Positions 4,845-39,564 of a DNA stretch of 64,000 nt are shown here, one piece after another (the stretch's first letter is position 1; every line of letters starts with the position of its first letter). Source of the DNA: Schmidtea polychroa (lineage: Eukaryota); assembly GCA_044892525.1 (NCBI GenBank), contig CM097885.1, positions 222,146,001 to 222,210,000 of the forward strand, given 5' to 3'. Position numbers and translations under genes: made by a program. The notes beneath the pieces were generated by a model that worked only from the letters and a program-made list of their open reading frames with translations, was not told the DNA's origin and ran no database searches.

Positions 4845-4879
<35 letters not shown>

Positions 4880-4892
<13 letters not shown>

Positions 4893-15800: not shown

Positions 15801-15989
15801 GTCGACCACTTTTCCTTTCCTACCACTTTGTGACAAAGCTATTGTGACCGAAATGCGACGGTATATATAGCCTGATTTTATGGTGTGCGAGTATATGTGA
15901 ATGCAAGTAGCTAGTTAGGAGCGTACCGCAGCAACTTTTTATTACGCAATTGCTGCAACTCACATTTTTTTTGCTTTCAGGGATCTTTA

Positions 15990-16500: not shown

Positions 16501-17110
16501 GTGGTAAATTAAGGATAAATACGTAATTGTCCGAATTTTTGAATTACAGTAAATTATGGGCTCAATTTTTTGAATTACATTAAATAATGGGTCTAAAAAT
16601 TGAATTACAGTAAATTAAGGTCCAAATTTTTGAACTACAGCAAATTATGGGTCCAATAATTGAATTAAAGTAATCAATGGATTCAAATAAATTAATTATG
16701 GTCCAAATTTTAAAATTACAGTAAATTATGGTCTAAATAAGTAAATTAAGGTTCAAATTTTGAATTAAAGATAATTAAGGTCTAAATATTTAATTTAAAG
16801 TAATCAATGGGCTCAATTAAGTAAATTATGATCTAAAATTTTAAATTAAAGTAAAATATGGTCCAAATTTTAAAATTAAGTAATCAATGGTCAAAAACTT
16901 TAAATTAAAGTTAAATAAGTAAATTAAAGTAATAATTTTTAAATTTATTAACAAAAAGTTGGAATAATAGTAGGTGTTTGAGAATTGAAATTTTTTAATA
17001 AAAAGTTTTATGAAATAATTTTTTAAGTAATTTTTAATAGAAATTTTAATAAAATATTTTTCAATGGTAATTTTATATGGAAATTTTTATGGAATAATTT
17101 TAAATAAAAA
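16500..17110. repeat. ~30 bp degenerate tandem repeat, module B in reverse orientation
   Basis: AAATTATGGGTCCAAATTTTGAATTACAG-like units running into the gap. Confidence 0.7.
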
Positions 17111-17255
17111 NNNNNNNNNNNNNNNNNNNNNNNNNNNNNNNNNNNNNNNNNNNNNNNNNNNNNNNNNNNNNNNNNNNNNNNNNNNNNNNNNNNNNNNNNN
17201 NNNNNNNNNNNNNNNNNNNNNNNNNNNNNNNNNNNNNNNNNNNNNNNNNNNNNNN
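17111..17255. other. Assembly gap (N run)
   Basis: 145 N; further gaps at 18962-19114 and 39257-39393. Confidence 1.
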
Positions 17256-18570
17256 ATTTGTCTCTGAAAATTATTTCATAAAAATTTCAATCTAAAACTT
17301 TCATTTCTCAAAAATCGACTATTATTCAAACTTTTGATAATAAATTTAAAATTCTTACTTTAATTTACTTATTTAAAATTTTTACTTTCATCAAAAATAT
17401 TACTTATTTAAAATCTTAATTTTAAAATTTAGCCTTATTTTACTAAATTTAACTATCGGATTTCGTATTGAAAATATCCTGAGACCTTAAATTACCACGT
17501 CTTTTTATTGATGACCCCATTTTTGCATTTAAAATATCCTGAAATTATCAATTATTATGTCTTTTTAACGAGGATTAGATTTTGTATAGAAATTCTCAGG
17601 TTCAAGGAGACCTCCTCACTGTAGTCAGAAAAATCCATGCTTTTCATCGAGAATTGAAAATTGTATTGAAAATCCGAGGATCAATCGAGGCCCCTCACTA
17701 TAATTAGAAAAAAATGGCTTTTTTTTGTATAGCCGGATTTTGTATTGAAAATTCCAGAAAAAATAAGCATAGCACTCTGCAGGAATTACGTAACCATTGA
17801 GCAAATAAAAACTACTTCAGAAAAAAAAATTTTCTAGGGGTACCCCCACCGGATAGTCGTGCTACAATTAGCTACTAACTATCTACTGTAATATGCAAAT
17901 AAAGTGTAACTAGTGTCCACATTGCTTTAACGGTTTTAGATATAAGAAAGCATTTGACCAAGATGTTGATTTTTGTTAAAAATCAGATTGGTACTACGCT
18001 TTATACATTACTGAAAAATAAAAACTTAAAATTCATCAACTTTTCCAAAACATTTAATACACCGTTTGAGAGAACTGGGCCACTAACTACCTAATGAATT
18101 AAAATACATATTAAACCAAAATAAAAAGTTAAAAATTTATCCTATCTGCATATTTTTTGCTGAGCATTTGAAAATATTCTATAAGATATAGACTTATTTC
18201 TAATTGTTTCCGCTTGGGAACGCTGGTTATAACTTGGTCAACCCGAACAATCTACTGGCTAATAAATATGAATTTTCTGTATTTTAAAACATTCAAAAAA
18301 TATTATGCATAATATTATTGTTGGAGCTTTAAATTTGAAATTAAAATAAATATTTTAAAATAAAGTTGAAATCAAATGAAATCAAATGAAATCAAATAGA
18401 AATGTGAAAATTTGAAGGAGAAATTTAATTTTTAAATCTTTAACTTTTCTACAATTTCAAAAGTTTATCTGTATTATTAGATAATAATAAATATTTATTA
18501 AGAATAATTAAATTAATATTTATTAACAATTAGTACGTTAAATATTAAAAATATTAATTCATATGAAAAT

Positions 18571-21500
18571 AGTAGTATGTAGTAAGGACTCCAGCGCACT
18601 TTCAAGGTCATGGAATATCAAGATCAAATATAGACCAATCGAATCATTTACTTTTTAAATTAACATTTTATAAAATTACTTCTTTTTAATTTTTTTTTTA
18701 ATTTTTTCATTTTAATTTTATTAATTACGTTTAAAAATTACGTTAACCGCGCGAAAAATACAAATTTATCGTAAAAACATGTGTGTATTACACACAAAGC
18801 GACAAACTAAAATTGTAATTGAGTCATTTTGTAGAGAAATAAATACTGCCTATACATGGTTACACTTAAATCCCAATCGGACAAAGAGAAAAGAGACAAA
18901 TGGGTGAAAAAGAGAGAGAAAAAACAGTAGAGTAGGGAACAAAGACATATGACGTCATCGANNNNNNNNNNNNNNNNNNNNNNNNNNNNNNNNNNNNNNN
19001 NNNNNNNNNNNNNNNNNNNNNNNNNNNNNNNNNNNNNNNNNNNNNNNNNNNNNNNNNNNNNNNNNNNNNNNNNNNNNNNNNNNNNNNNNNNNNNNNNNNN
19101 NNNNNNNNNNNNNNAAACTATGAAAATGTTAAAAATAATCATGAAATTGAGGCAAAAATTATAAAAATGTTCCTGAAATTATTATGAAAATGTTAAATAA
19201 ATAAACTTTAGCGTCAAAATGTGTTTTAAAATATATTGAAGTTTTAAAATACTGCAACGTAATGCATTTATTTTTCCTAGCCCTTCCTTGATTTTGATTG
19301 GTCAGAATTTAATCATGTGTAATATACAAGCAGTAACTTTTCAAATGTTTGTCATTTAAACTTTTAATTTAACTTATATAAGTGAATAATTTTTTATTCT
19401 CTATCTAATATTAATGATTATTTTCTTTTAGTGAACGGATGCAGTTTATATAAATTTTGTATTGCCGAAAGTCATGAAGATGTGGAGAACTGTAAATCAG
19501 TTACATCATCATATTTCAAGATAAATAACTCTACCTTATCGGGTTACATATGTCCGGAATGTCTCATTATATCACCAGGTAGGTGGTTAATGTTTGTACG
19601 ACAGCACGGACACCATCTTAGAAGATTCGAAGAAACGAAGAGCAGGATGATCACTAAAAGTAATACTCTTTCTACTATTAACAATTATTAATTTTTTATA
19701 GTACAATCGAAAATGAATACATCATACGATCCTAAGCCGATTAAAGAATATGTTACAAGTTATGTTATTTAAGTTGTTTAATATTAATTATAAATATAGT
19801 TAGACAAAACTCTGGCACCACAAAACGAAAGTCAATATTTTACGGAAATGGAGACTCTAAAATACAATTGTGTCCACGTCGGGAGTCTGACTTAAATGGT
19901 TCTCGTGTTGAATTGACAAGCGATGTATCTGCAATTAATTCTCCTGACATTGTTGTTCCAGATTGTCTCATCAAAGAAATAGAAGATCATATTCAACGAA
20001 TGGGGACAGTAAAAATCCAATTTGGACTTTGTGCAGAGTTTATCAAAGAGGATGGTGAAATTAAAAAATGGTGTTTGTCGAATAAAGCAATTACAATGTC
20101 ATCTTCATTTATTAATGATGGAATTGAAAAATTGAAAGAAAAGTCGGAGAACTACACTCAACAAAGTAGTGGGTGGAGAATTCATAAAATATTAGAAGTA
20201 ACTATGATTTTAACTAAATTATCAGGCATAATACATGTATCTGGTAAGTTTATTTACATTATTATATATATAAATCAAGATATTTACTTAGGTTCAAGTT
20301 ACATTAAAACGCGAAATTACCTGAAAAACTGTCAGGCTTTAGTTAATGTTCAAAACAATGATCAATTCTGTTTTTTATATAGCATACTAGCCGTGTTACG
20401 TTATGATGATATACGTCGGGATAGAGAAAGAACAACAAAATATAACTTAAGTGGTAATATATATATATATATATATTTATGAATGTCATAAATCATTGAA
20501 TTTTGTTTTTAAGACTTAAAATGGAAATTTGAATGGTTTCCGATGAAGTTGGTTAACATTTGCCAATTTGAAGCAATGAATCCAAATCTAGCGATCAATG
20601 TTCTCAAATATAATAAGGATCCAATTAAACAAAAAACTAATGATATTTTCAAGAATCCGTTCGTTGACTTGGTATATAGAAGTACTTTGACGGGATCTCA
20701 GATATATCTCCAATTGATTGAAGAAGGTAATATTTCTTTTAATCATTAAAAATATTAACTAAATTTTAGAATTAAATTATCATTTTTTGGCTGTAACTAA
20801 TTTCGATCGACTGCTGAATTAAAGAGATAGAGTAGAAGGAGTCAGAATCCAATCACAATGGTGTCATACATGTCTTCATGGATTTCAAAAAGGTCCTGCT
20901 TTTGAAAGACATATAGGTCTTTGTAGGAAGAATGTGGAGCGGACGACTCTATACTCAATGCCAGAGAATAAATATATCGAATTTAAAGACTGGAGTAAAA
21001 CTATAAAACAGCAGTTTGTTGTCTACGCGGACTTTGAATCAATATTACCTCTAGATGACAAGCACTTCCAAAAACATGAGCCGATTGCATCTGAATTTGT
21101 GCTTCTTCATCAAGGTTGTCCGATTCGAAATGAAACATTTGTTGGGAAAAACTGTATCATTCAGTTTATACAAGCATTGGATGATATAGCTACAGACATA
21201 GTTTATCCGTGGTATTAAATTAATGGATCGAAGGAAATGATGGAACTCACTTGGGAACAGCAGGAAGAATTTACGAATCAAACTCATTGCTACCTTTGTA
21301 AAAAGATTATCAATATACCTGTTCGGGATCACGATCATTTTACCGGTCAATATCTCGGAGCAGCGTGTCAAGATTGTAATTTGGGTAGAAGAATCAATCC
21401 GTCTTTACCCGTTGTATTTCACAATCTTCGTGGATATGACATTCATCATATATTAAAATATGCAATTCGAAAATTCCCAGATTGGAATTTAAATGTTATT

Positions 21501-23695
21501 CCACAATCAACAGAAAAGTTTCTCACACTTACAGCGACATCGAAAGGCAGAAGAATTAGATTCATTGATTCTTTACAATTTTTAAATAGCAGCTTGGCAA
21601 ATTTATCAAAATATTTACCATGTCTTCCACTGACCTCAGATGTTTTTGAATCACAGATGATGACTTGTAAAACCATTTTTCCTTATGATATGGCTACATC
21701 AATGGATGTTTTACAGTCAATAACAGAATTACCACTGATTTGGGAGGGAGTTAGTGAAGAAGATTATATACATGCAAATCGAATCTGGCAACAATACAAC
21801 TGTGAGACACTGCTAGATTACATGCTAGTATATCTCAAGCTGGATGTTTTTCTGTTGGCCGATGTTTTTGAAGCTTTCAGAGAAAAAACATTTGACGAAG
21901 ATGGACTTGAGGCTCTATCGTTTGTTTCCATACCCGGATTAAGTTGGGCATCAGCTATTAAACAGTTACCTGAACCGGTAGAACTTATTCAAGATCCAGA
22001 GCTTTACCGTTTATTTGAAGCTGGTATTCGTGGTGGAATGACATTTATCAACAAACATCATGTTGAAGCTGATGAATCAACACAAATGTCATACCTAGAT
22101 GTTAATAATTTATATGGATGGGCGCTGTCGCAAAAACTTCCTGTTGGTGAATTTAGATGGATAAATGATCAGACTGAAATGAATGGTATTCTTGAAAGAT
22201 GTACAAATGGGGATGAGTTTGATGGAGATCGTGGATATGTTCTAGAGGTTGACATCGTCATTCCTTATAGTATACAAGATAAGCTAGTTGATTTACCTAT
22301 AGCTCCTGAGCTTTGTTATCCACCTGGTAGTAAAGTTGAAAAGCTGTTGTTAACTCATGAGCCTAAGAAAAACTATGTAGTTAATGGTAGAGTTTTGACA
22401 GAGTGGTTGAGTTACGGCGCAAAAGTCACAAAAGTTAATCGTGCTGTAGAATTCAAGCAATTAGCTATTTTCAAAGGCTATATTGATTACAATACTCAAA
22501 TGAGAGCGGCTAGTACAGATTCATTTCAGCGAGATTATTATAAGTTAAAGAACAATAGTTTATACGGTAAAACCGTGGAAAACCTTAAGAAACGTATAAA
22601 TTTGAGATTATGCAGCAAAAGCAAAAGATTGATAACTTATTGTAGTAATCCTATGTTTCGTCGTAGCATCAAGATTGCGGATGATCTCATTGCTGTTATA
22701 CTTGATAAGGAAATGGTGTGTTTAGATAGACCAATGTATATTGGACAAACCGTACTTGATTTATCTAAACTTCGCATGTACCAGTTTCAATATAAAGAAC
22801 TACAGAGTTATAGAGAAGAATTCAATTGTAAAATTAATATCGTAGCCGGTGACACAGATTCCTTCTTTTTAGAGTGTAAAAATGTTGATTTACGCTTACA
22901 ACTGTATCCAAAAATGATTGCCGATGGGCTCCTAGATACTTCAAATTATCCAGTGACTGATCCATTGTTCTCAGATAAAATTTGTTCGGTAATCGGGAAA
23001 TTCAAGGATGAGAATAAAGGAAATCAATATAAAGAATGGGTGTTTCTTCGACCCAAGTGCTACTCACTCCAAGGGGATAAAAACACTCTAAATGCCAAAG
23101 GAATAAGTCTTACAAATTCTAATATCACCCATGAAGCCTATAAAAAAGTGTATACTGATGGTGGAACAGTGAGCATCCAACAAAAGAGAATAGGAAGTGT
23201 TAATCATCAGTTGTATACTTTCATTACAGAAAAACGAGCTCTCCAATGTTTGGATGATAAAAGGTATTGGTTAAATTCTAATGAAAGCTATGCCTACGGT
23301 CACAATAAGATTCGTCAAATGCATATTGCAACTGCTATGTCTAGAAATGAATGCAAATCGAAACAAGCACTTTAACAATTAAATTTATGTGAATAATAAA
23401 ATATATATTGTGAATTATTTGACTTAGTTAATTAAAATGTGTTTTATCATTTAATTATTCATTTGTCCAATTAATTTAGATAATTAGTTTCAAGTAAGAA
23501 ATATTATTTTCGTGTTTATGTTATTTATTTTTTTTTATTTTTTCCGAAATATTAATATGCAGTTTATCTAAAATTAAATCATCGTTTTATTTTATAAATT
23601 AAATAATTTCTAATTAAAATTTTATTCAAATTGAAATATTATTGTTATAATTTACCTCTTGTTAGAATATAATGTAAATGTAAAATTAAAAAAAA

Positions 23696-23728
<33 letters not shown>

Positions 23729-24113
23729 AAATAATACTAAAATAAATACATAATAAAATAATTAATTAAGAAAATTAAAAAGAAAAAAAAATAAATAGAA
23801 GTAATTAAATAAAATTTAAATTAAAAAATAAATAAATTAATTAAAAAATAATAATAATAATAATAATTAAATAGCGTAAGTAATTAAAATAAAATATTAA
23901 TAAACTAATAAATTGATTAAATGTAATAAATTAAAATAAAACATAATAAAATAATTAATTAATAAAATTAAAATGAAAAAATAAAAAAAAAAAATTAAAA
24001 AGAAGTAATTTTATAAAATGTTAATTTAAAAAATAAATGATTCGATTGGTCTATATTTGATCTTGATATTCCATGACCTTGAAAGTGCGCTGGAGTCCTT
24101 ACTACATACTACT
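18571..24113 (+). mobile_element. Polinton/Maverick-like element, ~5.5 kb, pPolB the only visible gene
   Basis: Termini AGTAGTATGTAGTAAGGACTCC...GGAGTCCTTACTACATACTACT; TIR ~155 bp; 6 bp TSD GAAAAT at 18565-18570 and 24114-24119; empty site with a single GAAAAT in the partner arm near 37945. Confidence 0.92.
19381..23375 (+). pseudogene. Protein-primed family B DNA polymerase (pPolB), intron-containing, two in-frame TAA stops
   Basis: Exo I VYADFES, Exo II FHNLRGYD, Exo III YLKLDV, pol motifs YLDVNNLYG, KLKNNSLYGK, AGDTDS and RPKCY. Inserted endonuclease VII-like CYLC...DHDHFTG...CQDCN. Introns 19660-19701, 19759-19799, 20244-20291, 20454-20513, 20727-20769 (possibly 19382-19431). Stops at 20820-20822 and 21216-21218. 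Confidence 0.88.
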
Positions 24114-24776
24114 GAAAATATTATTCAGTAATATTTATATTAAATACATAAATGGAAATATAAATAATATTATTAATTAATAAATAAAATAACTTAATTA
24201 ATTAAATTTATTAAATCATAATAAAATAGTTAATTAATAAAATAGAATAAAATAAAGTAAGTAATAAAATTAAAAATAATAAAAAATTAAGTAAAATAAA
24301 ATAATATTTTCAAATTAAATAAATTAAAAATTAATAATAATAATAAAATTTATAATAGATTATTTAAAAAAATAAATAATAAAAGTAATAAATAATTAAT
24401 TTTAATAAAATTTAAAATAGTGTTTAAAAAGTAAATAAAATAAAATTTATAAATCAAATAAATTAGATTATTTAAAAATGTAAATCTTTAATTTTTCTAT
24501 AATTTTAAAAGTTTATCTGCATTATAAGATAATAATAAATATTTATTAAAAATAATAAAATTAATATTTATTAAAAATTATTAATGTTACAAGTTTAAAA
24601 TAGTTTCCATGTGAAAAGATTATTCAGTTATATTTTCTATTATTTCCTTATTTTATATTTATATTCTCTTCTGTTAATTGCAATTTCAAATATCTTTAAA
24701 ATATTTAAATTTCCGTAATAAAAATATTTTTAAATTGTTTGAATTATCATATTAATGTATTATATTTATTAACTAA

Positions 24777-27268
24777 ATGAATTCAAACAAACGATTAATG
24801 AACTCTGAAATTTCTGAAGCTTTCAAAAGAAATTTGAAATACGATCTAGTAAAAGATCATTCAACAGCAACTTCAAGGCATCATTATAACGCCCTCGCTC
24901 AAACGGTTTGGGAACAAATTTGTAGTCGGTGGATCAAAACTGAGGAACTTTATAACAAAAACGATCCAAAAGTAAATTCAATTTTCATTAAAATATAAAA
25001 TTAATATTATTATTTTAGCGAGTTTATTATTTATCTCTGGAATTTTACATGGGCAGAACATTGAGTAACACAATGATGAATATTGATTTACTTGAAGAAG
25101 TTAAACAAAATCTTTATGAAATGGGTCTCGAAATCGAAGAATTAGAAGAGATTGAAGATGATGCTGGACTTGGAAATGGAGGTCTTGGACGTCTAGCAGC
25201 ATGCTTTCTAGATTCCATGGCGACTTTAGGAATTGCTGCTTGCGGATATGGAATCCGTTATGACTATGGAATATTTCAACAGGTTTTCCATGATGGATGG
25301 CAAATTGAAAAGCCTGATGATTGGTTGAAGCATGGTAATGTTTGGGAAAAAATCCGATCCCAATATAGTCACGAAATCAAATTTTATGGACACTGCCAAA
25401 ATACCGAAGATGGAAATAATCGTTGGGTTGACACAGAATCTGTACTGGCAATGCCATATGATACACCGATACCTGGATATAAAAATGACATCTGTAATAC
25501 TTTACGCTTGTGGTCAAGCAAACCAGTTAATAATTTCGATTTTCAATCATTTAATTCTGGACATTACTTAAATGCAGTCCATGAAAGAAATAACGCAGAA
25601 AACATTTCACGTGTTTTGTATCCAAATGATAACTGTGAAGGTGGAAAAATACTGAGATTGAAACAAGAATATTTTGTTGTCGCAGCAAGTTTGCAAGACA
25701 TTATTCGACAATATAGAGAATCAGGACCTCGTTCAGGTTTTGATGAATTTCCTAATAAAGTTGCAATACAACTCAATGATACTCATCCTAGTATTGCTAT
25801 TCCCGAATTGATGCGTATACTAGTTGATTTGGAAGGTTTGGATTGGGATAAAGCCTGGGATATTTGTACTCGAACATTTGCCTATACAAATCACACAATT
25901 TTACCAGAAGCTCTTGAAAGATGGTCAGTTTCATTACTAGAGTTTCTTTTACCTAGACATTTACAAATTATCTATCTCATCAACCATTTCTTTATGTTAT
26001 CGGTTAAAGAAAGATATCCCCATGATAATGACCGCTTACGACGAATGTCAATAATTGAAGAGGGAGATGAAAAGAAAGTGAATATGGCCCATCTCTGTAT
26101 TGTTGGATCACACGCAGTCAATGGCGTTGCTGCGATACATTCCAAGATTATTAAAGACGATACATTCAGAGACTTTTCTGATTTTTGGCCTGAGCGGTTC
26201 CAAAACAAAACTAATGGAATAACTCCACGTCGGTGGTTATTGTTATGCAATCCAGATCTTTCCAATTACATCAGTCAGAATATTGGAAGATCATGGATAA
26301 ACAACTTGAATGATTTGTCAGATTTGAAACGGTTCTGCGATGATGCAAATGTGCTTGAGTCAATCATGCAAATCAAATATGAAAACAAAGTAAAATTTGC
26401 AAATTACATTGAGAAAAACATGAACATCAAAATTAATCCCAATACAATGTTCGACTTTCAAGTGAAACGGATCCATGAATATAAACGTCAATTGTTAAAT
26501 TGTTTATATGTGATTGTGCTATACAACCGATTGAAAAAGAATCCTCATTTGGAAATCACTCCAAGAACTGTCATGTTTGGAGGAAAAGCTGCTCCTGGGT
26601 ATCACATGGCCAAATTGATAATCAAACTTATCAATCAAGTCGCATCTACCATTAATCAAGATCCAATCATCAGTGAAAAGCTAAAACTTGTATTTCTTGA
26701 AAACTATCGAGTATCAATGGCAGAGAAGATCTTTCCTGCTGCAGATCTTAGTCAACAAATATCCACAGCAGGTACGGAGGCATCTGGAACTGGGAACATG
26801 AAATTTATGTTAAATGGAGCTTTGACAATTGGTACAATGGATGGAGCTAATGTCGAAATGTGTGAAGAGATGGGTAAAGAAAATATGTTTATATTTGGAA
26901 TGTTAGTAGACGAAGTCAACTCACTCAAACCAAGATATAATTCCATGGAATTTATTGGGAGAAACGAAGAACTCAATTTATGTTTAAACCAAATTCGTGA
27001 TGGCCATTTTTCACCTAATCAACCACATTTATTTCACGATATCTACAATTCTTTAGTTTACCATGATAGATTTATGTTGTGCGCTGACTTTGAAGATTAT
27101 GTCAAAGTACAGGATGAAGTTGGAAAGATGTATCAAAATAAAAGACAATGGGCTAAAATGGCTTTATTAAACATTGCATCCAGTGGAAAGTTTTCATCTG
27201 ATAGAACAATTTCTGAATATGCACGAGACATTTGGAATAGTAAACAGAACTCGCATGAAAGTTTATAG
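24777..27268 (+). CDS. PYG: Glycogen phosphorylase, copy 1 (two exons, intron 24972-25018, ~814 aa)
   Basis: Splicing joins DPK|[15 protein letters not shown]; [41 protein letters not shown] and the PLP-lysine motif [10 protein letters not shown] are all present. Confidence 0.97.
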
Positions 27269-28524
27269 TAAAATCAATTTATCTGCTTTATGTTAATTAA
27301 ATATATTTATTATTATTATTAATTTTATTGTTTCTTCAATTTTTATTTGTTTTAATAAACATTTTTATTTTAAACAATTTATAAATATTCGTGATTTTCA
27401 ATTGCTAATTATAGATTTGTTTAATTTTATAAGTAAATAATAATTTGGCTACTAACTAACTACCTATCTGATAAACTAAGTAAAATATCAATGAATAAAA
27501 TATTGATGCAATATTGATGAGATACTTATATAAAAATCTCAAAAAAAAACTAAAATAAGTTTTCCTCCAACTTATTGACATGGCGACATTGATATTTCAT
27601 ATATAGGTAGAGTAGGCAACATATAGCTCTGCCTAGGGCCGCCAAATGACTGGAACTATCATTCAACGTATTAATAAATATTCATAATAAATATTTTAAT
27701 ATATCAACTTTATTGATTATTTTGTCAATAAATTTTAAAATGAAGTGTAATATAAAAATAGTTTTGAAGTTTCTAAAATTGATAAATTCTGTGTTAACAG
27801 AGAAGAATATTTTTATATATTTTAATATTTAATTTTATATACAATTTTTAAAGTTTTAATTTTTCAAAATGTTTTTTATTTAAAATGAATTTTATAATTT
27901 TGTCTTTCAATATTATATAATTATCAGTCTTCTTTATTTACCCTAACCTTAATTTTTTTCATATTTTACTTTTCGAGTTACTTTGCCCGTGTTCTTTTTT
28001 ATATATTATATGATTAAATAAATTTCAAATATTTTTAGATATATTAGTAATAAAAGTTTATAAATTTTAAATACACCAAAAGAAATTAGTTTAGAATAAA
28101 GTGAATTTCCAACTTTAACTCTTCTATGAAAACCAGTGGGAATTTATTCGTTGATTTTTGATATAATTACATTAAAGTCATCTTTCATTTCAAAAATTAA
28201 ATTATTTTATCCAAATATAAATAAAATTAATAGTTTAAGAAATATTTTAAACCATGAAATTTTCCATTTGAATAATAATAATCATTGATAATAAATATTT
28301 AAAAATATTTTATTTAATTAATTTGAAATGATGAATTTTACTTAAATATTGTAAATTAGTAATTTTTAAAGGTTAATATTCAATTTTTTAATATATACTT
28401 ATAATAATGACAATTAAATTTCTTAGGCATATTGATAACAGAGTGGTAATATGATGTATACTGCTAATATTAACATTTATGATAATAATATTAATAATAA
28501 AGATGATAATAACTTGATATTAAT

Positions 28525-28579
<55 letters not shown>

Positions 28580-28727
28580 TTGATGACAATGATAATAACA
28601 ATAATTGCATATCAATAATTGTAATGTGCTAATATTTTAGAAATAATAATAATAATCATAAGGCAGACGGGTGCCCAATAATAGAGAATCAATATTAGAT
28701 TTGATCGTGATAATGTTATTTAAAATA

Positions 28728-29003
28728 TTTATTTCACAATTAAACTCTGTCATATATTTTTTCAATTCATGATATTGTAGCTGGTATATCCGCAGTTTAG
28801 ACAGATCTAGCACAGACCAATATAGCTAGGCCTGTCTAAATATATCGAATTCTTATTTGGATGAGCAGCAATCATATCATCATCAATTCTGATGGATTTT
28901 CTGAAAATGAGTTCTGAGGCATATACAATAATCTTTTCAGCTGAATTGCACAGCCTCAAATTCAACCGTTTTTTCAGATTCTCTACGGATTTATCATATA
29001 GGC
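28728..29003 (-). pseudogene. Inverted copy of a pPolB fragment (left half of the central hairpin)
   Basis: Reverse complement of ~29890-30168 with a few mismatches. Confidence 0.88.
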
Positions 29004-29788
29004 CAAAGGTGGGGAATCTGCTGCCTTTTGGCTATTCTAGTGCGGCCTTTTGAGTAATACCGATTTTTTTATTTTTTGGTAATTTTTTACGTGGTTTCAC
29101 TTTACGCGATCGAGAAAAAATGTTTATGATGCATATGCCGCTTCACGTGCTTTTTATTTATTCGTAGTTACACTCCTCAGTTTTCAGCAAAATTACGAAA
29201 TTTTATGATTTTAAGAAAAATTGAGCCATTTTTTGATATTTAAAGAAAATTATGCTATTTCTTTGTTTTTAAGAAAAGCTGAGCTATTTTTTTTAAATAT
29301 AATAAAATCCGTTCTATTTTCTTTATTATTTCAAAATCTGTGCTATTTTCTTTATTATTTCAAAATCTGTGCTGTTTTCTTTCTCATTTCAAAAACGTGT
29401 TATTTCTTTATTATTTCAAAAAACGTGTTATTGTTTTTATTATTTCGAAGAACGTGCTATTTCAAAATTTGTGCTATTTTTTTTATTTTCCATTTATATA
29501 ATTCTGTTTGTGTTACAACCCATCATGTCAAAGAAGATCAAGAGATCGCTAAAGGACGAAAACAGATTATTTAACAAGGACTGGGAATTGGAATATTATG
29601 TTGTTTCTGTTAAAAATAAAATGGTTTGTTTACTTTGTGATACTACTATATCAACATTGAAAAAATTCAATGCTCATCAGCATTATAGTACTCATAAGGA
29701 CCACAAGTTTTTCAAATTAGAAGGAGAGCCGCGAAAAGCTATTTTAATGAAATTAAAACACCAAAAATGAAAAGGTTCCCCAGCCCTG
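29004..29788 (+). mobile_element. Internally deleted hAT element (SPIN/GTF2IRD2-like), 785 bp
   Basis: TIRs CAAAGGTGGGGAATC / GGTTCCCCAGCCCTG; perfect 8 bp TSD ATATAGGC; truncated transposase N-terminus KRSLKDENRLFNKDWELEYYV...VCLLC...HYSTH. Confidence 0.9.
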
Positions 29789-29848
29789 ATATAGGCTGTT
29801 ATTAAATAATTTATATAAACCTCTGTACAACTCACATTTAATTTCTAC

Positions 29849-30420
29849 ATGTGAGCTGTACAGAGGTTTGTATAAATTATTTAATAACAACCTATATGAT
29901 AAATCCGTAGAGAATCTGAAAAAACGGTTGAATTTGAGGCTGTGCAATTCAGCTGTAAAGATGATTGTATATGCCTCAGAACTCATTTTCAGAAAATCCA
30001 TCAGAATTGATGATGATATGATTGCTGCTCATCCAAATAAGAATTTGATATGTTTAGACAGGCCTAGCTATATTGGTCTGTGCTAGATCTGTCTAAACTG
30101 TGGATATATCAGGTACAATATCATGAATTGATGAAATATATGACAGAGTTTAATTGTGAAATAAATATTGTTGCCGGCAACACTGATTCATTTTTTCTTG
30201 AGATTAGGCACTGTAAGCTTGATACTTTTTTGTCTGCAATGATTAGAGACAGCCTTCTATATATCCATTGTACTCGAGAAACCTTGACTTTGTGATAGGA
30301 AAATTTAAGGACGAGAGTTAAGGTCTCGGATACACTGAATGAGTTTTCTTAAGACCCAAGTTTTATAGTTTAATGGGTACTAAGGACACAATGAGAACCA
30401 AGGGTGTTAAATTAGTGGAA
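29849..30420 (+). pseudogene. pPolB C-terminal fragment from a related, diverged Polinton
   Basis: YKLFNNNLYDKSVENLKKRLNLRLC, LDRPSYIG, LDLSKL and INIVAGNTDSFFLE align with the 21237-23375 ORF. Confidence 0.85.
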
Positions 30421-31169
30421 CAGAAATTCCTCACCAGTCATATTTCTACTGTTATAATAACAATAACATATTTTCAGTACCACAGACTAGGATAGTTCAG
30501 ATTAAAAATTATTTTAATTCAAGTCAAAAATTATTTTAGTTCAGATCAATAATTATTTAAGTGCTAGATGACTTTTAAAGTAAATTTTTGAATAAAAAGT
30601 TTTGATTTGAATTATTTTAGTAAAAAAGAGAATAATATAGTGCTCATTAAATAATAAAGTAATGCTTGGAAATGATATAGTGCAGTTTGCTATTAAAAAT
30701 AGTGACACTTGTGATCATTTTCTAGTGCAACATTAAATACATTCCCCTCTTTATTTGTCAGTTTTACTTGCTTTTATTCAAGTAAAATGTATCTCAAAAA
30801 TCATCGTTAAGGTTTTAATTAATATTTACAAACTACCGCGCCAGCACCTTCGGGCAGTTGCGGATGCTGGGCGTGCTGATGATTTTAATCTTTATATTTT
30901 AAAAAAAGGTATATTTACATGTTTTATGGTGAAATGTTGATTTAAAAAATTTTGTAATAAAGCTGAGAAATTTAGTTTAGACTTTAAAATTTTGAAAAAA
31001 TTTGAGTTGACAAATATGTTTTTGAGACTTTTAGAATTTTGGGAATTTTATGATTTGGCAAGATTTTTCTTGTAAATATATTGTACATTTCTTATACTGT
31101 TGATTTCTATTACTAAAATTATATTTAAAAAAAATCTTCCCTTTACGAATCAACAGATATATTAAACAG

Positions 31170-31620
31170 CCCACTAATGATTGCATTTATTAAATATATT
31201 GATGGTAATGATATACAAGGAATAAAAGAACAAATATACTGTTGTAAAGAACTTTATCTGAGAACTGTATGTCAATCTGCATAAATGGAGCAGCATCAAT
31301 GCTAGGGCGCAAAGTGAGTTTAAATCACGATTACAATAAACGAATCCTTCAATAAAGTGGAATCGCTGCATTATACATAGATAAGTATTAGCTGCAAAGC
31401 AATTAAATAAAGGTTTGAACTAAGTTTTACAAAAAGGTCAGTTAACTTAGTTAACTTACTAAAAAGTAAGATCGCTGAATTCGCACTTTTTTAAAGTGCT
31501 ATGACTTGATATGGGATCTGAATTCATTAAAGTAAAAATTAAATAAATAACGAAAAGGTACTTATTGCAAAATGTTTAAGAAACACTGCTCTACAATATA
31601 TAAATTGAAGATGTGGTAGA
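31170..31620 (+). pseudogene. hAT (ZBED5/FAM200-like) transposase mid-region fragment
   Basis: LMIAFIKYID...INGAASMLG...RCIIHR matches the DGAxxM and HCxIHR hAT motifs in decayed form. Confidence 0.65.
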
Positions 31621-32679
31621 AAAATTAAATACCGCTCACAAACACGACAAATTCTAAAAAATATACGCAAGCTATCAATGTGCATTTATGTGTATGCACT
31701 CCTTTAATAAATTTATTAAACAATATTTTGAAACAAAATGACAAATAAATTGATTTTCGTGAAATTGAAGAAATATCATCGCAAGATTTATTTAAAAGCT
31801 AAAATTTATTTAATATTTCAGTAGCATTTCAAAAATTTCTGTCTAAAACCTTTCATTAAGCGAAGGTGAAAAGAAGATATTGTAAGATTTATTTATAAAT
31901 TTAACACAATTTATTATTTCCACATTCTACAATACTTAATATCGGGAATAGAAAGTATAAATTGTAAATTTTATTTAGAAGTTTTAAAAATATGTTATTA
32001 TTATAGAATTTCTGAAATATTATTATTTATTTCCCTTTTGACTAGATTCGTAGATTATTTACGGAATGCTTAAAAATATACATATTTATGGAGATTAATT
32101 TTTTTTCTAAATAAATAATAAATCTAACTTTAAATTGAAATATTTTCAGAAATAAAATAAATAATTTTCTGAAAATGTAGAAAAGTTAATAATAAAATGA
32201 ATGAAATCAAGTGATTTGTGAAAATAAATTATTCGTCAAGTTGAGTTACGCTTCAACTTGTAATTTAGAATGAGTATCTCAGTGGAATTTGTTGTAATTT
32301 TATATGTGGTGTATACAATGTTATATATATAGAGAGTTCCTGTACTCTATGCACTGACCTTAGGAACATAGTCAAATAAATGGTTTGAGCTAAATTATTG
32401 AACACTGAATAAATTCCAAAATAAATATCAAATTTTGATTTCTAAATCTTTTGTAGGAATTTTGATAATTATTTGAATATTATGCGATGTATAGCTGAAG
32501 AGATCCAAATCCCCTTCGAAATTAATAAGTTATAAAGTCAAAAATTTATTTCAGTGCTCAAATTTATATCCTCAGTGTTCAGTATTTAAATTGATTTAAG
32601 AAATTATAATTTCTATATCATCAAATATAGCTGTGATTTAAACTAAATACATTAAATACAGTAAAATATTCATAAAATA

Positions 32680-33300
32680 TCTTTTCATTCTTGTAGAAAA
32701 TTTATTATATTTCAATTTAATTTTGATTTGTAAAAAAAGCTTCAATCTCCTTTCATTTCACTTTTTTAATATTACATCTATTTTTAAATTTGTAACATTT
32801 TCAAGTTTTTATGTTTTCAACATTTTATATCCTCTCGCCCATCACTAAATATTCAACCCGCAACTAATTTATTAAAAGTATTTACTTTAATTTTCATGTC
32901 ATATCAATGCTACCTCACTGCTTATTGTTACCTTTGTCCTTTGCTAATAAAAGCATTAATTGTTATGTTTGACATTTCTTGTTTGGCATCAATCTTAACT
33001 GTTACAATAAAATTTCATTAATTTGACAGATTATTTTATCAATTTATCTCGATGGCAATATAGTTTTGGGTACTTATCCTTCGTTTTCCATATTTTTTTT
33101 GTTTTCGCTTTTCGATTTGTAATTATTAGTTAAATACGACCTGGTCGTGTTTCATAATTGATTGCTTTAATAATTTTGTTATTTTCATTTCATTTTCTCA
33201 TTTCTTCACATCTATCCTGCTTTTCAGAGATATTTGTTTATTAATCTTAGCCTATGATCATTTCAAAATTTAATTACAACTTATAACGTTATTAATAGCA
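32680..33300. repeat. Dispersed ~550-600 bp repeat, direct copy at ~58255-59070
   Basis: AATATCTTTTCATTCTTGTA...CATCTATCCTGC is shared at high identity with 58255-58800; a further segment is shared with ~59000-59070. Confidence 0.85.
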
Positions 33301-33306
33301 TTATTA

Positions 33307-33455
33307 TTATTTTAAATAACATTATCACGATCAAATTTAATATTGATTCTCTATTATTGGGCACCCGCCTGCCTTATGATTATTATTATTATTTCTAAAA
33401 TATTAGCACATTACAATTATTGATATGCAATTATTGTTATTATCATTGTCATCAA

Positions 33456-33537
<82 letters not shown>

Positions 33538-36500
33538 ATTAATATCAAGTTATTATCATCTTTATTATTAATATTATTATCATAAATGTTAATATTAGCA
33601 GTATACATCATATTACCACTCTGTTATCAATATGCCTAAGAAATTTAATTGTCATTATTATAAGTATATATTAAAAAATTGAATATTAACCTTTAAAAAT
33701 TACTAATTTACAATATTTAAGTAAAATTCATCATTTCAAATTAATTAAATAAAATATTTTTAAATATTTATTATCAATGATTATTATTATTCAAATGGAA
33801 AATTTCATGGTTTAAAATATTTCTTAAACTATTAATTTTATTTATATTTGGATAAAATAATTTAATTTTTGAAATGAAAGATGATTTTAATGTAATTATA
33901 TCAAAAATCAACGAATAAATTCCCACTGGTTTTCATAGAAGAGTTAAAGTTGGAAATTCACTTTATTCTAAACTAATTTCTTTTGGTGTATTTAAAATTT
34001 ATAAACTTTTATTACTAATATATCTAAAAATATTTGAAATTTATTTAATCATATAATATATAAAAAAGAACACGGGCAAAGTAACTCGAAAAGTAAAATA
34101 TGAAAAAAATTAAGGTTAGGGTAAATAAAGAAGACTGATAATTATATAATATTGAAAGACAAAATTATAAAATTCATTTTAAATAAAAAACATTTTGAAA
34201 AATTAAAACTTTAAAAATTGTATATAAAATTAAATATTAAAATATATAAAAATATTCTTCTCTGTTAACACAGAATTTATCAATTTTAGAAACTTCAAAA
34301 CTATTTTTATATTACACTTCATTTTAAAATTTATTGACAAAATAATCAATAAAGTTGATATATTAAAATATTTATTATGAATATTTATTAATACGTTGAA
34401 TGATAGTTCCAGTCATTTGGCGGCCCTAGGCAGAGCTATATGTTGCCTACTCTACCTATATATGAAATATCAATGTCGCCATGTCAATAAGTTGGAGGAA
34501 AACTTATTTTAGTTTTTTTTTGAGATTTTTATATAAGTATCTCATCAATATTGCATCAATATTTTATTCATTGATATTTTACTTAGTTTATCAGATAGGT
34601 AGTTAGTTAGTAGCCAAATTATTATTTACTTATAAAATTAAACAAATCTATAATTAGCAATTGAAAATCACGAATATTTATAAATTGTTTAAAATAAAAA
34701 TGTTTATTAAAACAAATAAAACTTGAAGAAACAATAAAATTAATAATAATAATAAATATATTTAATTAACATAAAACAGATTAATTGATTTTACTATAAA
34801 CTTTCATGCGAGTTCTGTTTACTATTCCAAATGTCTCGTGCATATTCAGAAATTGTTCTATCAGATGAAAACTTTCCACTGGATGCAATGTTTAATAAAG
34901 CCATTTTAGCCCATTGTCTTTTATTTTGATACATCTTTCCAACTTCATCCTGTACTTTGACATAATCTTCAAAGTCAGCGCACAACATAAATCTATCATG
35001 GTAAACTAAAGAATTGTAGATATCGTGAAATAAATGTGGTTGATTAGGTGAAAAATGGCCATCACGAATTTGGTTTAAACATAAATTGAGTTCTTCGTTT
35101 CTCCCAATAAATTCCATGGAATTATATCTTGGTTTGAGTGAGTTGACTTCGTCTACTAACATTCCAAATATAAACATATTTTCTTTACCCATCTCTTCAC
35201 ACATTTCGACATTAGCTCCATCCATTGTACCAATTGTCAAAGCTCCATTTAACATAAATTTCATGTTCCCAGTTCCAGATGCCTCCGTACCTGCTGTGGA
35301 TATTTGTTGACTAAGATCTGCAGCAGGAAAGATCTTCTCTGCCATTGATACTCGATAGTTTTCAAGAAATACAAGTTTTAGCTTTTCACTGATGATTGGA
35401 TCTTGATTAATGGTAGATGCGACTTGATTGATAAGTTTGATTATCAATTTGGCCATGTGATACCCAGGAGCAGCTTTTCCTCCAAACATGACAGTTCTTG
35501 GAGTGATTTCCAAATGAGGATTCTTTTTCAATCGGTTGTATAGCACAATCACATATAAACAATTTAACAATTGACGTTTATATTCATGGATCCGTTTCAC
35601 TTGAAAGTCGAACATTGTATTGGGATTAATTTTGATGTTCATGTTTTTCTCAATGTAATTTGCAAATTTTACTTTGTTTTCATATTTGATTTGCATGATT
35701 GACTCAAGCACATTTGCATCATCGCAGAACCGTTTCAAATCTGACAAATCATTCAAGTTGTTTATCCATGATCTTCCAATATTCTGACTGATGTAATTGG
35801 AAAGATCTGGATTGCATAACAATAACCACCGACGTGGAGTTATTCCATTAGTTTTGTTTTGGAACCGCTCAGGCCAAAAATCAGAAAAGTCTCTGAATGT
35901 ATCGTCTTTAATAATCTTGGAATGTATCGCAGCAACGCCATTGACTGCGTGTGATCCAACAATACAGAGATGGGCCATATTCACTTTCTTTTCATCTCCC
36001 TCTTCAATTATTGACATTCGTCGTAAGCGGTCATTATCATGGGGATATCTTTCTTTAACCGATAACATAAAGAAATGGTTGATAAGGTAGATAATTTGTA
36101 AATGTCTAGGTAAAAGAAACTCTAGTAATGAAACTGACCATCTTTCAAGAGCTTCTGGTAAAATTGTGTGATTTGTATAGGCAAATGTTCGAGTACAAAT
36201 ATCCCAGGCTTTATCCCAATCCAAACCTTCCAAATCAACTAGTATACGCATCAATTCGGGAATAGCAATACTAGGATGAGTATCATTGAGTTGTATTGCA
36301 ACTTTATTAGGAAATTCATCAAAACCTGAACGAGGTCCTGATTCTCTATATTGTCGAATAATGTCTTGCAAACTTGCTGCGACAACAAAATATTCTTGTT
36401 TCAATCTCAGTATTTTTCCACCTTCACAGTTATCATTTGGATACAAAACACGTGAAATGTTTTCTGCGTTATTTCTTTCATGGACTGCATTTAAGTAATG

Positions 36501-39256
36501 TCCAGAATTAAATGATTGAAAATCGAAATTATTAACTGGTTTGCTTGACCACAAGCGTAAAGTATTACAGATGTCATTTTTATATCCAGGTATCGGTGTA
36601 TCATATGGCATTGCCAGTACAGATTCTGTGTCAACCCAACGATTATTTCCATCTTCGGTATTTTGGCAGTGTCCATAAAATTTGATTTCGTGACTATATT
36701 GGGATCGGATTTTTTCCCAAACATTACCATGCTTCAACCAATCATCAGGCTTTTCAATTTGCCATCCATCATGGAAAACCTGTTGAAATATTCCATAGTC
36801 ATAACGGATTCCATATCCGCAAGCAGCAATTCCTAAAGTCGCCATGGAATCTAGAAAGCATGCTGCTAGACGTCCAAGACCTCCATTTCCAAGTCCAGCA
36901 TCATCTTCAATCTCTTCTAATTCTTCGATTTCGAGACCCATTTCATAAAGATTTTGTTTAACTTCTTCAAGTAAATCAATATTCATCATTGTGTTACTCA
37001 ATGTTCTGCCCATGTAAAATTCCAGAGATAAATAATAAACTCGCTAAAATAATAATATTAATTTTATATTTTAATGAAAATTGAATTTACTTTTGGATCG
37101 TTTTTGTTATAAAGTTCCTCAGTTTTGATCCACCGACTACAAATTTGTTCCCAAACCGTTTGAGCGAGGGCGTTATAATGATGTCTTGAAGTTTCTGTTG
37201 AATGATCTTTTACTAGATCGTATTTCAAATTTCTTTTGAAAGCTTCGGAAATTTCAGAGTTCATTAATCGTTTGTTTGAATTCATTTAGTTAATAAATAT
37301 AATACATTAATATGATAATTCAAACAATTTAAAAATATTTTTATTACGGAAATTTAAATATTTTAAAGATATTTGAAATTGCAATTAACAGAAGAGAATA
37401 TAAATATAAAATAAGGAAATAATAGAAAATATAACTGAATAATCTTTTCACATGGAAACTATTTTAAACTTGTAACATTAATAATTTTTAATAAATATTA
37501 ATTTTATTATTTTTAATAAATATTTATTATTATCTTATAATGCAGATAAACTTTTAAAATTGTAGAAAAATTAAAGATTTACATTTTTAAATAATCTAAT
37601 TTATTTGATTTATAAATTTTATTTTATTTACTTTTTAAACACTATTTTAAATTTTATTAAAATTAATTATTTATTACTTTTATTATTTATTTTTTTAAAT
37701 AATCTATTATAAATTTTATTATTATTATTAATTTTTAATTTATTTAATTTGAAAATTTTATTTTATTTTACTTAATTTTTTATTATTTTTAATTTTATTA
37801 CTTACTTTATTTTATTCTATTTTATTAATTAACTATTTTATTATGATTTGATAAATTTAATTAATTAAGTTATTTTATTTATTAATTAATAATATTATTT
37901 ATATTTCCATTTATGTATTTAATATAAATATTACTGAATAATATTTTCATATGAATTAATATTTTTAATATTTAACGTACTAATTGTTAATAAATATTAA
38001 TTTAATTATTCTTAATAAATATTTATTATTATCTAATAATACAGATAAACTTTTGAAATTGTAGAAAAGTTAAAGATTTAAAAATTAAATTTCTCCTTCA
38101 AATTTTCACATTTCTATTTGATTTCATTTGATTTCATTTGATTTCAACTTTATTTTAAAATATTTATTTTAATTTCAAATTTAAAGCTCCAACAATAATA
38201 TTATGCATAATATTTTTTGAATGTTTTAAAATACAGAAAATTCATATTTATTAGCCAGTAGATTGTTCGGGTTGACCAAGTTATAACCAGCGTTCCCAAG
38301 CGGAAACAATTAGAAATAAGTCTATATCTTATAGAATATTTTCAAATGCTCGGCAAAAAATATGCAGATAGGATAAATTTTTAACTTTTTATTTTGGTTT
38401 AATATGTATTTTAATTCATTAGGTAGTTAGTGGCCCAGTTCTCTCAAACGGTGTATTAAATGTTTTGGAAAAGTTGATGAATTTTAAGTTTTTATTTTTC
38501 AGTAATGTATAAAGCGTAGTACCAATCTGATTTTTAACAAAAATCAACATCTTGGTCAAATGCTTTCTTATATCTAAAACCGTTAAAGCAATGTGGACAC
38601 TAGTTACACTTTATTTGCATATTACAGTAGATAGTTAGTAGCTAATTGTAGCACGACTATCCGGTGGGGGTACCCCTAGAAAATTTTTTTTTCTGAAGTA
38701 GTTTTTATTTGCTCAATGGTTACGTAATTGCTGCAGAGTGCTATGCTTATTTTTTCTGGAATTTTCAATACAAAATCCGGCTATACAAAAAAAAGCCATT
38801 TTTTTCTAATTATAGTGAGGGCCTCGATCGATCCTCGGATTTTCAATACAATTTTCAATTCTCGATAAAAAGCATGGATTTTTCTGACTACAGTGAGGAG
38901 GTCTCCTTGAACCTGAGAATTTCTATACAAAATCTAATCCTCGTTAAAAAGACATAATAATTGATAATTTCAGGATATTTTAAATGCAAAAATGGGGTCA
39001 TCAATAAAAAGACGTGGTAATTTAAGGTCTCAGGATATTTTCAATACGAAATCCGATAGTTAAATTTAGTAAAATAAGGCTAAATTTTAAAATTAAGATT
39101 TTAAATAAGTAATATTTTTGATGAAAGTAAAAATTTTAAATAAGTAAATTAAAGTAAGAATTTTAAATTTATTATCAAAAGTTTGAATAATAGTCGATTT
39201 TTGAGAAATGAAAGTTTTAGATTGAAATTTTTATGAAATAATTTTCAGAGACAAAT
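33307..39256 (-). repeat. Right arm of large inverted duplication
   Basis: Reverse complement of 17256-18570 plus 24114-28728, with scattered substitutions and a longer (AAT)n tract. Confidence 0.92.
34794..37285 (-). CDS. PYG: Glycogen phosphorylase, copy 2 (two exons)
   Basis: The 739 aa ORF has the same translation as copy 1; exon 1 differs at one residue (HSTATS versus HSTETS). Confidence 0.97.
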
Positions 39257-39564
39257 NNNNNNNNNNNNNNNNNNNNNNNNNNNNNNNNNNNNNNNNNNNN
39301 NNNNNNNNNNNNNNNNNNNNNNNNNNNNNNNNNNNNNNNNNNNNNNNNNNNNNNNNNNNNNNNNNNNNNNNNNNNNNNNNNNNNNNNNNNNNNCAACAAC
39401 AACCAAGTACTTACAACTAGATACCCACAACCAGGTACCAAGTACTAACCACTAATAACAACCAAATACTTAGCACTATCAATCAAGTACCCAACTACCA
39501 GCAACTAAGTATTTTTAACTAGCTACGAACAAATAAGCATCAAATACTTACAACTAAGTATTTA

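Follow-up and report, generated by a model that had tools for sequence, protein, structure and literature searches.

Most known fold-back duplications come from patients, tumours or yeast mutants; these are recent events whose tight centre has usually been lost, and the mechanism class is already known from the yeast and human work. As outlined for human fold-back inverted duplications, inverted arms surround a single-copy spacer (median 3.4 kb) bordered by short inverted homology, the junctions showing 2-8 bp of microhomology or being alternatively primed by 300-bp repeats of 82-95% identity (PMC3907307). The foldback inversions reported in yeast are selected laboratory events, mostly from sae2/mre11 mutants, with a loop of less than 15 nt, a short and possibly imperfect stem and a secondary joining at repeats, a homology-mediated switch between repeats being their usual resolution (PMC7467729). 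Later changes of such structures have also been described. In the account of ODIRA and palindrome erosion, a tight palindromic junction is widened secondarily when a deletion in one arm, closed at a microhomology junction, enlarges the spacer (PMC10766186), and in the gene-bearing, high-identity arms that surround few-kb spacers on the human Y, arm-to-arm gene conversion is reported as established (PMC6790999).

The planarian locus analysed here, part of a window of 64,000 nt from Schmidtea polychroa, shares the inverted arms and the single-copy spacer of the human cases and possibly their short inverted homology, and its outer junction (4.58-kb spacer, 4-bp microhomology) falls within the range reported for them. 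Unlike the human cases, its arms are only about 6 kb long, interstitial and aged enough to have gathered mutations and transposons, and its spacer contains an older palindrome with an 11-nt loop, whereas the spacers given for human junctions measure 766 bp or more (PMC3907307). It has the short loop of the yeast foldbacks, may share their priming on a short stem and their joining at repeats and, unlike the events presented there, has no visible dicentric stage or telomere capture (PMC7467729). A tight junction later widened by a one-arm microhomology junction is a trait common with palindrome erosion; by comparison with ODIRA as it is outlined in that source, the locus shows no inverted triplication and its tight centre is kept, not deleted (PMC10766186). 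The gene-bearing arms around a few-kb spacer recall the Y palindromes, from which the locus differs, on the features summarised for them, by much smaller arms, no sign of a sex chromosome and a gene conversion that is here a proposal (PMC6790999). No publication on such a planarian or Schmidtea locus was found in a search conducted mostly outside subscription journals.

Geometry, insertions and apparently duplicated gene

Self-BLAST of the window places the duplicated sequence in inverted orientation within the assembly (Table 1). Positions 17256-18574 match the reverse complement of 37939-39256 with 99.5% identity and positions 24113-28727 that of 33308-37949 with 99.1% identity, while the inner arms (28724-29003 together with 29797-29837) mirror 29849-30169. 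A preliminary description of this DNA had recognised the mirror structure, with coordinates correct to within a few bases, as well as the 11-nt loop at its centre. The size of about 22 kb that it proposed is set by gaps and not by observed breakpoints. It was silent on both outer ends stopping, at gaps, at the same homologous base and on the inner arms being 12 times more diverged than the outer ones. No Rfam match was found inside 17256-39256 at the gathering threshold. Elsewhere in the window, two RRM matches, at 7376-7822 and 8990-9364, are those that bear on the putative gene previously labelled RBM19.

Table 1. Position of the features composing the inverted duplication and its surroundings (window coordinates)
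Feature	Position	Strand	Remarks
Left flank	15906..17110		second X-R repeat unit copy, 70-79% identical, head-to-head with arm end across gap
Left outer arm, outer piece	17256..18570		mirror 37939-39256; begins at N gap inside dispersed AT-rich repeat (R)
Maverick/Polinton-like insertion	18571..24113	+	no right-arm counterpart; AGTAGT ends; terminal inverted repeats of about 150 bp
Left outer arm, inner piece	24114..28727		mirror 33308-37949
Glycogen phosphorylase, left copy	24777..27268	+	exons 24777-24971, 25019-27268; 814 aa, open frame
Microhomology at derived junction	28724..28727		4 bp; mirrors TATT at 30166-30169 and 33308-33311
Inner left arm, outer piece	28728..29003	-	mirrored fragment of dead polymerase-B relic
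hAT-type non-autonomous insertion	29004..29788	+	left inner arm; empty mirror site
Innermost left stem	29789..29837		49 bp, hAT end to loop
Loop, axis of symmetry	29838..29848		11 nt; 3' half in polymerase frame
Inner right arm	29849..30169	+	part of polymerase-B relic; relic reaches about 30494
Single-copy stretch without mirror	30170..33307		rest of relic, then unique DNA and repeats
Right outer arm	33308..39256		insertion-free; terminates at N gap, base homologous to 17256
Glycogen phosphorylase, right copy	34794..37285	-	exons 37285-37091, 37043-34794
Right flank	39394..39562		satellite that follows R in intact units at 4.7-5.2 kb and 5.4-6.0 kb

The Polinton and the hAT element had been presented as later insertions into one arm, in agreement with the perfect target-site duplications and the empty mirror sites observed for both. 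These matching duplications show that the assembly joins across the two insertions are correct. hAT transposons typically have short terminal inverted repeats and duplicate 8 bp of their target site; the inner insertion displays such a duplication (28996-29003 and 29789-29796), and its terminal repeats match at 12/16 bases. It holds no intact transposase, only a Spin-doc zinc-finger piece scoring 27.2 bits against a cut-off of 27.3. The larger insertion, flanked by a 6-bp target-site duplication (18565-18570 and 24114-24119) with the empty site in the right arm, encodes at 20823-23375 a protein-primed DNA polymerase B (Pfam DNA_pol_B_2, E=1.6e-30) bearing an in-frame stop near 21216. Its AGTAGT ends, terminal inverted repeats, duplication length and polymerase B are those described for Maverick/Polinton elements, from which, as characterised in that source, it differs by its size of 5.5 kb, its single gap (18962-19114, 153 N, possibly hiding sequence) and the integrase, ATPase, protease and capsid frames not being seen (PMC8097293). 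None of these four was detected when its three longest gap-free frames were scanned (one polymerase and two matchless), the remaining N-free frames being of at most 117 aa. At best, the insertion would therefore be a shortened Maverick or one that the assembly recovered in part.

The right glycogen phosphorylase differs from the left one by four silent changes and Ala31Glu. The phosphorylase domain (PF00343) scores 1118 bits, and all 8/8 conserved core motifs tried were found. The regulatory serine motif, an N-terminal feature of animal glycogen phosphorylases that was retrieved in 97/120 phosphorylase homologues, was not found in the modelled CDS or in two upstream stretches, where a small exon could escape detection. 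No near-identical phosphorylase is present among the best 120 of 8000 matches, the best full-length named ones reaching 68%. The Maverick-like insertion lies about 660 bp upstream of the left start codon. The two copies might be beginning to diverge, given that one of them has undergone a radical replacement of a conserved small residue and the other has a 5.5-kb insertion upstream.

The tight centre and its polymerase relic

The fold computed for the 131-nt centre has an energy of -39.1 kcal/mol (z -14.8), a value that 0/200 shuffles reach, and the hAT insertion has cut the uninterrupted stem to 49 bp. The centre sits in the remains of a dead Maverick-type polymerase; the homology of this relic starts inside the loop, and its frame is continuous from there through 30169. 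The loop is therefore original sequence and the left junction derived, the relic homology continuing through 30169 into the unmirrored stretch; the fold-back origin and the derived left junction previously proposed are both sustained by this continuity. With a polymerase homology that starts in the loop and a stretch 30170-33307 that is unmirrored, the central spacer corresponds to the original single-copy sequence. The two inner arms share the same frame break, so that the relic was already dead before being mirrored. Its portion before residue ~424 is missing beside the centre, as a loss of DNA past the fold point might leave it, and a separate N-terminal relic is located at 49066-50057. A single relative was found at E<=1e-8 among 157 candidates, and its 65% identity makes it too distant for a DNA-level comparison. 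If an offset of two codons is allowed, five codons of the inner left stem and the loop start score as polymerase (a post hoc result, p 0.005-0.04 over four variants, with 126/152 homologues usable), as would be expected if a pre-existing short inverted repeat had primed the fold.

The centre (28724-30169) is more diverged than the outer arms and resembles a pair of terminal repeats, as if a MITE or foldback transposon resided in the spacer of an ordinary inverted duplication. This explanation, the least probable of those considered, was rejected: what is mirrored comes from the interior of a polymerase gene, its homology continues past 30169 on one side only, and the centre has no flanking target-site duplication and no second copy in the 64 kb. 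Amplification chimeras typically consist of an inverted join with a short loop and microhomology, a shape that the locus also presents, and a fold-back during library preparation or whole-genome amplification could produce it. Such an origin is nevertheless very improbable and largely refuted. A chimera copies one template, whereas here one arm carries two transposons, each with its target-site duplication, that the other lacks, and the arms are separated by 30 substitutions (21 transitions), with derived changes on both sides (among the 12 of the inner arms, polarised by eye with two outgroups, 6 nt are derived on the right, 2 on the left and 4 are not polarisable); a library chimera was rejected on these differences.

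Divergence of the inner and outer arms

The inner arms differ by 12 substitutions in 321 sites (3.7%), and the outer arms, inserts excluded, by 18 in 5918 aligned sites (0.30%), to which an indel of 1 bp and an (AAT)n tract differing in length by 27 bp are added. This difference of about twelve-fold (Fisher p=1e-8) is also observed when the inner arms are compared with the outer non-coding positions only (13/3482, p=2e-7) or with the outer synonymous sites (4 of about 487, p=0.008). One undisturbed hairpin cannot therefore account for both values, and the "one giant hairpin" of the preliminary description, a single event that predicts an even arm divergence, is not upheld as formulated. On the basis of these counts, the divergence step would need a second, younger event or gene conversion.

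The TATT-like microhomology noticed earlier near 28728 proved to be an exact 4-bp TATT (Table 1), and the chance of finding at least 4 bp at this junction is ~0.026. An asymmetric central deletion, in which the left arm would have lost the equivalent of 30169-33306, had been proposed. The unmirrored stretch does exist, with limits a few bases off (30170-33311 when the microhomology is included, 3142 bp), and starts ~320 bp off the axis, so the deletion is not central; its supposed stabilising effect is doubtful because it spares the tight centre. The same TATT could just as readily have primed a second fold-back around a single-copy spacer of 4.58 kb.

The explanation that we favour, while granting it somewhat less than an even chance, is a real inverted duplication that would have been made in two steps, an old tight fold-back followed by a younger one. 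In the first step, to which the divergence of about 3.7% belongs, the already dead relic would have suffered a break or a fork switch and folded back on a short pre-existing inverted repeat, giving the 11-nt original loop and mirrored arms of at least 320 bp, and the hAT element would later have landed 49 bp from the loop. In the second step (about 0.3%), this fragile palindrome would have broken on its left side and been repaired by another fold-back. The primer would have been the 4-bp TATT itself, leaving a single-copy spacer of 4.58 kb, or else the old arms, in which case 30170-33311 would have been skipped, or removed at TATT. About 5.9 kb of right-hand DNA, including the whole two-exon phosphorylase, would have been copied as the left arm. 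The junction of this new arm with the left flank, now hidden by a gap, would lie in or close to the AT microsatellite of a repeat, and the Maverick-like element would have inserted into the new arm afterwards. The geometry, the sequences of both junctions, the insertions with their empty sites, the two levels of divergence and the continuity of the relic are observed; we infer the order of these events and which arm is the copy, as well as a fold-back rather than a replication template switch and the location of both arms on one chromosome. The absence of insertions in the right arm, its ancestral continuity at 30169 and its natural satellite-R outer end support it as the probable original. 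Breakage-fusion-bridge cycles would be consistent with nested junctions of two ages, although such junctions do not demonstrate them.

The same junction sequence is expected from an unlikely yet serious alternative, which amounts to the earlier model with conversion added: one old fold-back, the left arm of which lost 30170-33311 by microhomology-mediated deletion, and whose outer arms are held at 0.3% by arm-to-arm conversion. The inner island, enclosed between the deletion on one side and the hAT insertion, would have escaped conversion and kept its true age of 3.7%. The one-arm deletion and the conversion both have the precedents cited above. Of the 18 outer substitutions, two fall no further than 60 bp from the TATT junction (P about 0.015, post hoc), a position that suits this alternative better than the two-step explanation. 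The outer substitutions also appear clustered in the raw data (7/17 gaps of at most 60 bp, p about 0.009), but this clustering weakens when weighted for coding constraint (p 0.02-0.04 at 3/4 thresholds and 0.29 at the fourth) and is not significant once changes within 10 bp are merged (p 0.13-1.0); patchy gene conversion was dropped as a positive finding on these grounds. Conversion moreover requires a twelve-fold homogenisation reaching up to the 5.5-kb insertion.

Outer ends, assembly and significance

Both outer arms stop at one homologous base, at N gaps (17111-17255 and 39257-39393) that fall within a repeat family. As the satellite of the right flank follows R in intact units, the sequence at the right end looks like that of a natural repeat unit. 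Apart from dispersed repeats, the flanks are unrelated over at least 17 kb on the left and 24 kb on the right, as would be expected of two loci. On the left, if the head-to-head X-R pair were a native old element, the left arm could be the parent and the one-event reading would be forced, the right end being then readable as a homology-mediated switch between R repeats, similar to the usual resolution in yeast mentioned above. No 6-bp target-site duplication flanks the pair (a 5-bp repeat lies 5 nt off), and the left arm may or may not be the native locus.

The gap-hidden breakpoints and the shared end base speak against the two-step explanation insofar as they also fit two alleles or a collapsed repeat, and a divergence of 0.3%, made mostly of transitions (13/18 in the outer arms) and accompanied by a one-sided transposon, resembles ordinary heterozygosity. 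It is conceivable, but rather unlikely, that a single-copy phosphorylase region was mis-joined from two alleles differing by 0.3% heterozygosity and a heterozygous Maverick. Only the small centre palindrome would then be real, and the gene would be linked to either end of the 4.6-kb centre by an inversion or deletion of that centre in the heterozygous state; the assembler would have walked allele 1, the centre and allele 2, leaving one outer scaffold link false. Such an artefact explains the divergence step without any extra event, and several properties of the assembly agree with it: the identical runs of 1302, 1097 and 837 bp between the outer arms are hard to phase by short reads, a 97%-identical repeat in the unmirrored stretch (32671-33314, with another copy at 58250-59082) adjoins the 33311 junction, and the short gaps seen in AT-rich repeats point to a draft that was gap-filled. 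However, the span 19115-39256 is free of gaps, and the joins across both insertions are confirmed by their target-site duplications. A structural polymorphism broken exactly at TATT is also required, together with at least one false scaffold link, given that the flanks have no common homology beyond dispersed repeats.

If the arms were mis-joined alleles, the locus would be a warning of false gene duplications arising in flatworm drafts from heterozygous rearrangements near small palindromes. As a natural case with an 11-nt loop, two internal clocks and a duplicated gene predicted to be working, it would offer a test of whether old palindromes trigger new ones or, alternatively, whether palindromes are kept young by gene conversion. 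We tentatively propose, on the sequence evidence above, serial fold-backs at one site in the heritable genome of a free-living flatworm, in which a short inverted repeat from a dead virus-like transposon would have seeded a tight palindrome that later broke, refolded and duplicated an intact metabolic gene; we regard this as less likely than not. If this is true, one palindrome would beget the next outside cancer cells and yeast mutants, with both junctions and both dates readable in 22 kb.

Geometry of the mirrored arms and their dead polymerase centre

Self-BLAST of the window confirmed the mirror reported in the preliminary description, with coordinates correct to within a few bases, and base-level checks recovered the 11-nt loop and the TATT microhomology it placed near 28728. 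The folding of the centre (z -14.8 against shuffles) was matched by 0 of 200 shuffles. The two insertions attributed to one arm are indeed restricted to the left arm, the right arm having the empty site in each case: a Maverick-like element (18571-24113, perfect 6 bp target-site duplication) and a hAT element (29004-29788, perfect 8 bp target-site duplication). The former displays the end structure and polymerase of Mavericks but not the gene complement given for them in the portion of PMC8097293 consulted. Its terminal repeats show two mismatches and one indel over about 150 bp, and the protein database contains a polymerase 97% identical to its own.

Positions of the mirrored segments and of other features in the window
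Feature	Position	Strand	Basis
Outer mirror pair, outer piece	17256-18574 vs 37939-39256		self-BLAST of window
Outer mirror pair, inner piece	24113-28727 vs 33308-37949		self-BLAST of window
Inner mirror pair	28724-29002 vs 29891-30169		self-BLAST of window
Centre inverted onto itself	29789-29897		self-BLAST of window
Loop, 11 nt	29838-29848		base-level check
TATT microhomology, 4 bp	30166-30169 and 33308-33311; mirror at 28724-28727		base-level check
piggyBac-type transposase domain, 458-aa open frame	12411-13787	-	Pfam DDE_Tnp_1_7, E=4e-74
Rhodopsin-family receptor, single exon	46926-48023	+	7tm_1 and Srw hits
Cysteine/histidine-rich open frame, 277 aa	43205-44038	+	no Pfam match

What is mirrored in the inner arms is a fragment of a dead protein-primed polymerase B gene; it shares 53-61% identity with the polymerase copy within the Maverick-like insert and 65% with the sole relative found. 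Polymerase homology begins within the loop and, on the right side only, continues past 30169 as far as about 30494. The loop is therefore original sequence, and it is the left junction that is derived, the right side keeping the ancestral state at 30169; this one-sidedness of the homology excludes a MITE as the centre. Since one frame break is common to both inner arms, the relic would almost certainly have been dead before it was mirrored. With similar confidence, the hAT would have inserted once the inner mirror existed. Twelve inner differences polarised by eye against two outgroups comprised 6 derived on the right, 2 derived on the left and 4 not polarisable. With derived changes on both sides, the inner arms aged separately, which together with the insertions rules out a fold-back chimera from the library. 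At a two-codon offset, the five codons spanning the inner left stem and the beginning of the loop resemble the homologues' sequence (p 0.005-0.04 in four variants; anchor motif found in 126 of 152 proteins); as a post hoc result, this no more than hints that a pre-existing quasi-palindrome primed the fold. Such priming is reported in the consulted parts of studies on yeast (PMC7467729) and human (PMC3907307) fold-backs. A further dead polymerase-B relic (49066-50057, minus strand; N-terminal part, 44-52% identical to the inserted copy) could either represent the front part lacking from the centre relic or be an independent copy.

Divergence step and origin of the palindrome

The single giant hairpin previously proposed is not supported in that form, the inner arms being far more diverged (12/321 sites substituted) than the outer ones (18/5918; Fisher p=1e-8). 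Selection on the phosphorylase is not the cause, as the step persists against outer non-coding sites alone (13/3482; p=2e-7) and outer synonymous sites (4 of about 487; p=0.008). We tentatively favour, at somewhat below even probability, two nested fold-backs with the second one younger. The TATT junction can also be read as inverted microhomology flanking a single-copy spacer of 4.58 kb; given the base composition, four or more bases would arise by chance with a probability of about 0.026. Human fold-back junctions, in the part of PMC3907307 consulted, have a median spacer of 3.4 kb and microhomologies of 2-8 bp, like the spacer and 4-bp microhomology here, or are primed by repeats of about 300 bp that are 82-95% identical, which the old inner arms closely resemble. 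A younger second fold-back, a possibility we hold with the same reserve, would leave a junction identical to that of a deletion and account for the divergence step without added assumptions. Under two fold-backs, the second would have ended with the new arm being joined to the left flank. That the Maverick-like element inserted only once the outer arms had separated is nearly certain, given the empty site in the right arm.

A single fold-back followed by deletion and then by conversion between the long arms appears rather unlikely. Deletion and arm conversion have precedents in the consulted parts of PMC10766186 and PMC6790999, respectively, and 2 outer differences fall within the 60 bp adjoining the junction (P about 0.015); the outer differences were moreover clustered in a raw test (p about 0.009), but this clustering was lost once coding constraint was weighted and changes lying close together were merged (p 0.13-1.0). 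It is unlikely that the assembler joined two alleles via the centre, for example at a heterozygous inversion. The 0.3% divergence and one-sided transposon are typical of alleles, and identical runs between the arms reach 1.3 kb; however, the left (17 kb) and right (24 kb) flanks have only dispersed repeats in common and 19115-39256 is gap-free, so both a structural polymorphism and a wrong scaffold link would be required. The other explanations considered are jointly very improbable.

Outer ends and stability

The extent of about 22 kb is set by N gaps rather than by breakpoints, and at these gaps both outer arms end on one homologous base within a dispersed AT-rich repeat. The right gap is followed by satellite, which adjoins this repeat, with an (ATT)n tract between, in both intact units (4.7-5.2 and 5.4-6.0 kb), so the right end looks native; a microsatellite would account for both contigs breaking at the same place. 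The left arm end faces head-to-head another copy of the same unit (70-79% identical), and no 6-bp target-site duplication linking these copies was found, a 5-bp repeat occurring 5 nt off. We lean slightly towards the right arm as parent. The composite repeat (15906-17110, 17256-17887, 38626-39256, 4740-5233 and 5452-6046) combines an AGTAG-starting end, 29-60 bp tandem units, the AT-rich part, (ATT)n and a GT-rich satellite, and perhaps represents a long terminal repeat from a large DNA element not yet characterised.

The deletion proposed to have stabilised the palindrome is off-centre and leaves the tight hairpin in place; the hAT reduces the uninterrupted stem to 49 bp. According to the consulted part of PMC7999016, palindromes are less stable the longer and more alike their arms and the shorter their spacer, so insertion and mismatches would be the likelier stabilisers. 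From its assembled structure, the locus would work like a fold-back inverted duplication, two of whose six defining features are present. No paper on such a locus was found in the literature searched, which covered few subscription journals and articles without supplements.

Neighbouring elements and the duplicated phosphorylase

Rfam matches to mir-753, a planarian family, at 2160-2220 (minus strand, 62 bits, exactly at the cut-off) and 40202-40262 (minus strand, 44 bits) lie within two copies (1521-2422 and 39563-40457, 92.5% alike) of an element 0.9 kb long that has terminal inverted repeats, which suggests a MITE-derived microRNA family; no paper on mir-753 was found in the literature searched.

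Each arm carries a two-exon, 814-codon copy of the duplicated gene, which encodes a glycogen phosphorylase (Pfam, 1118 bits). The copies differ at 5/2445 coding bases, four silent and one causing Ala31Glu, at a position where, among the 109 homologues with a locatable motif (out of 120 listed), 90 have Ala and 19 have Ser. The N-terminal regulatory serine motif, present in 97 of the 120 homologues listed, was not found in the modelled coding sequence or in two stretches upstream of it. In a tree of 26 named homologues (unnamed entries excluded), the protein is sister to trematodes and cestodes with Macrostomum outside (support 97/94, long branch), a position that points to a flatworm, probably a free-living planarian. 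The right arm holds a 155-bp direct repeat in the upstream region (37427-37581 vs 37926-38080, 86% by self-BLAST). Upstream of the left start, 24114-24776 is about 16% GC; the Maverick-like insert sits within this upstream region, and expression of the left phosphorylase copy may be altered.
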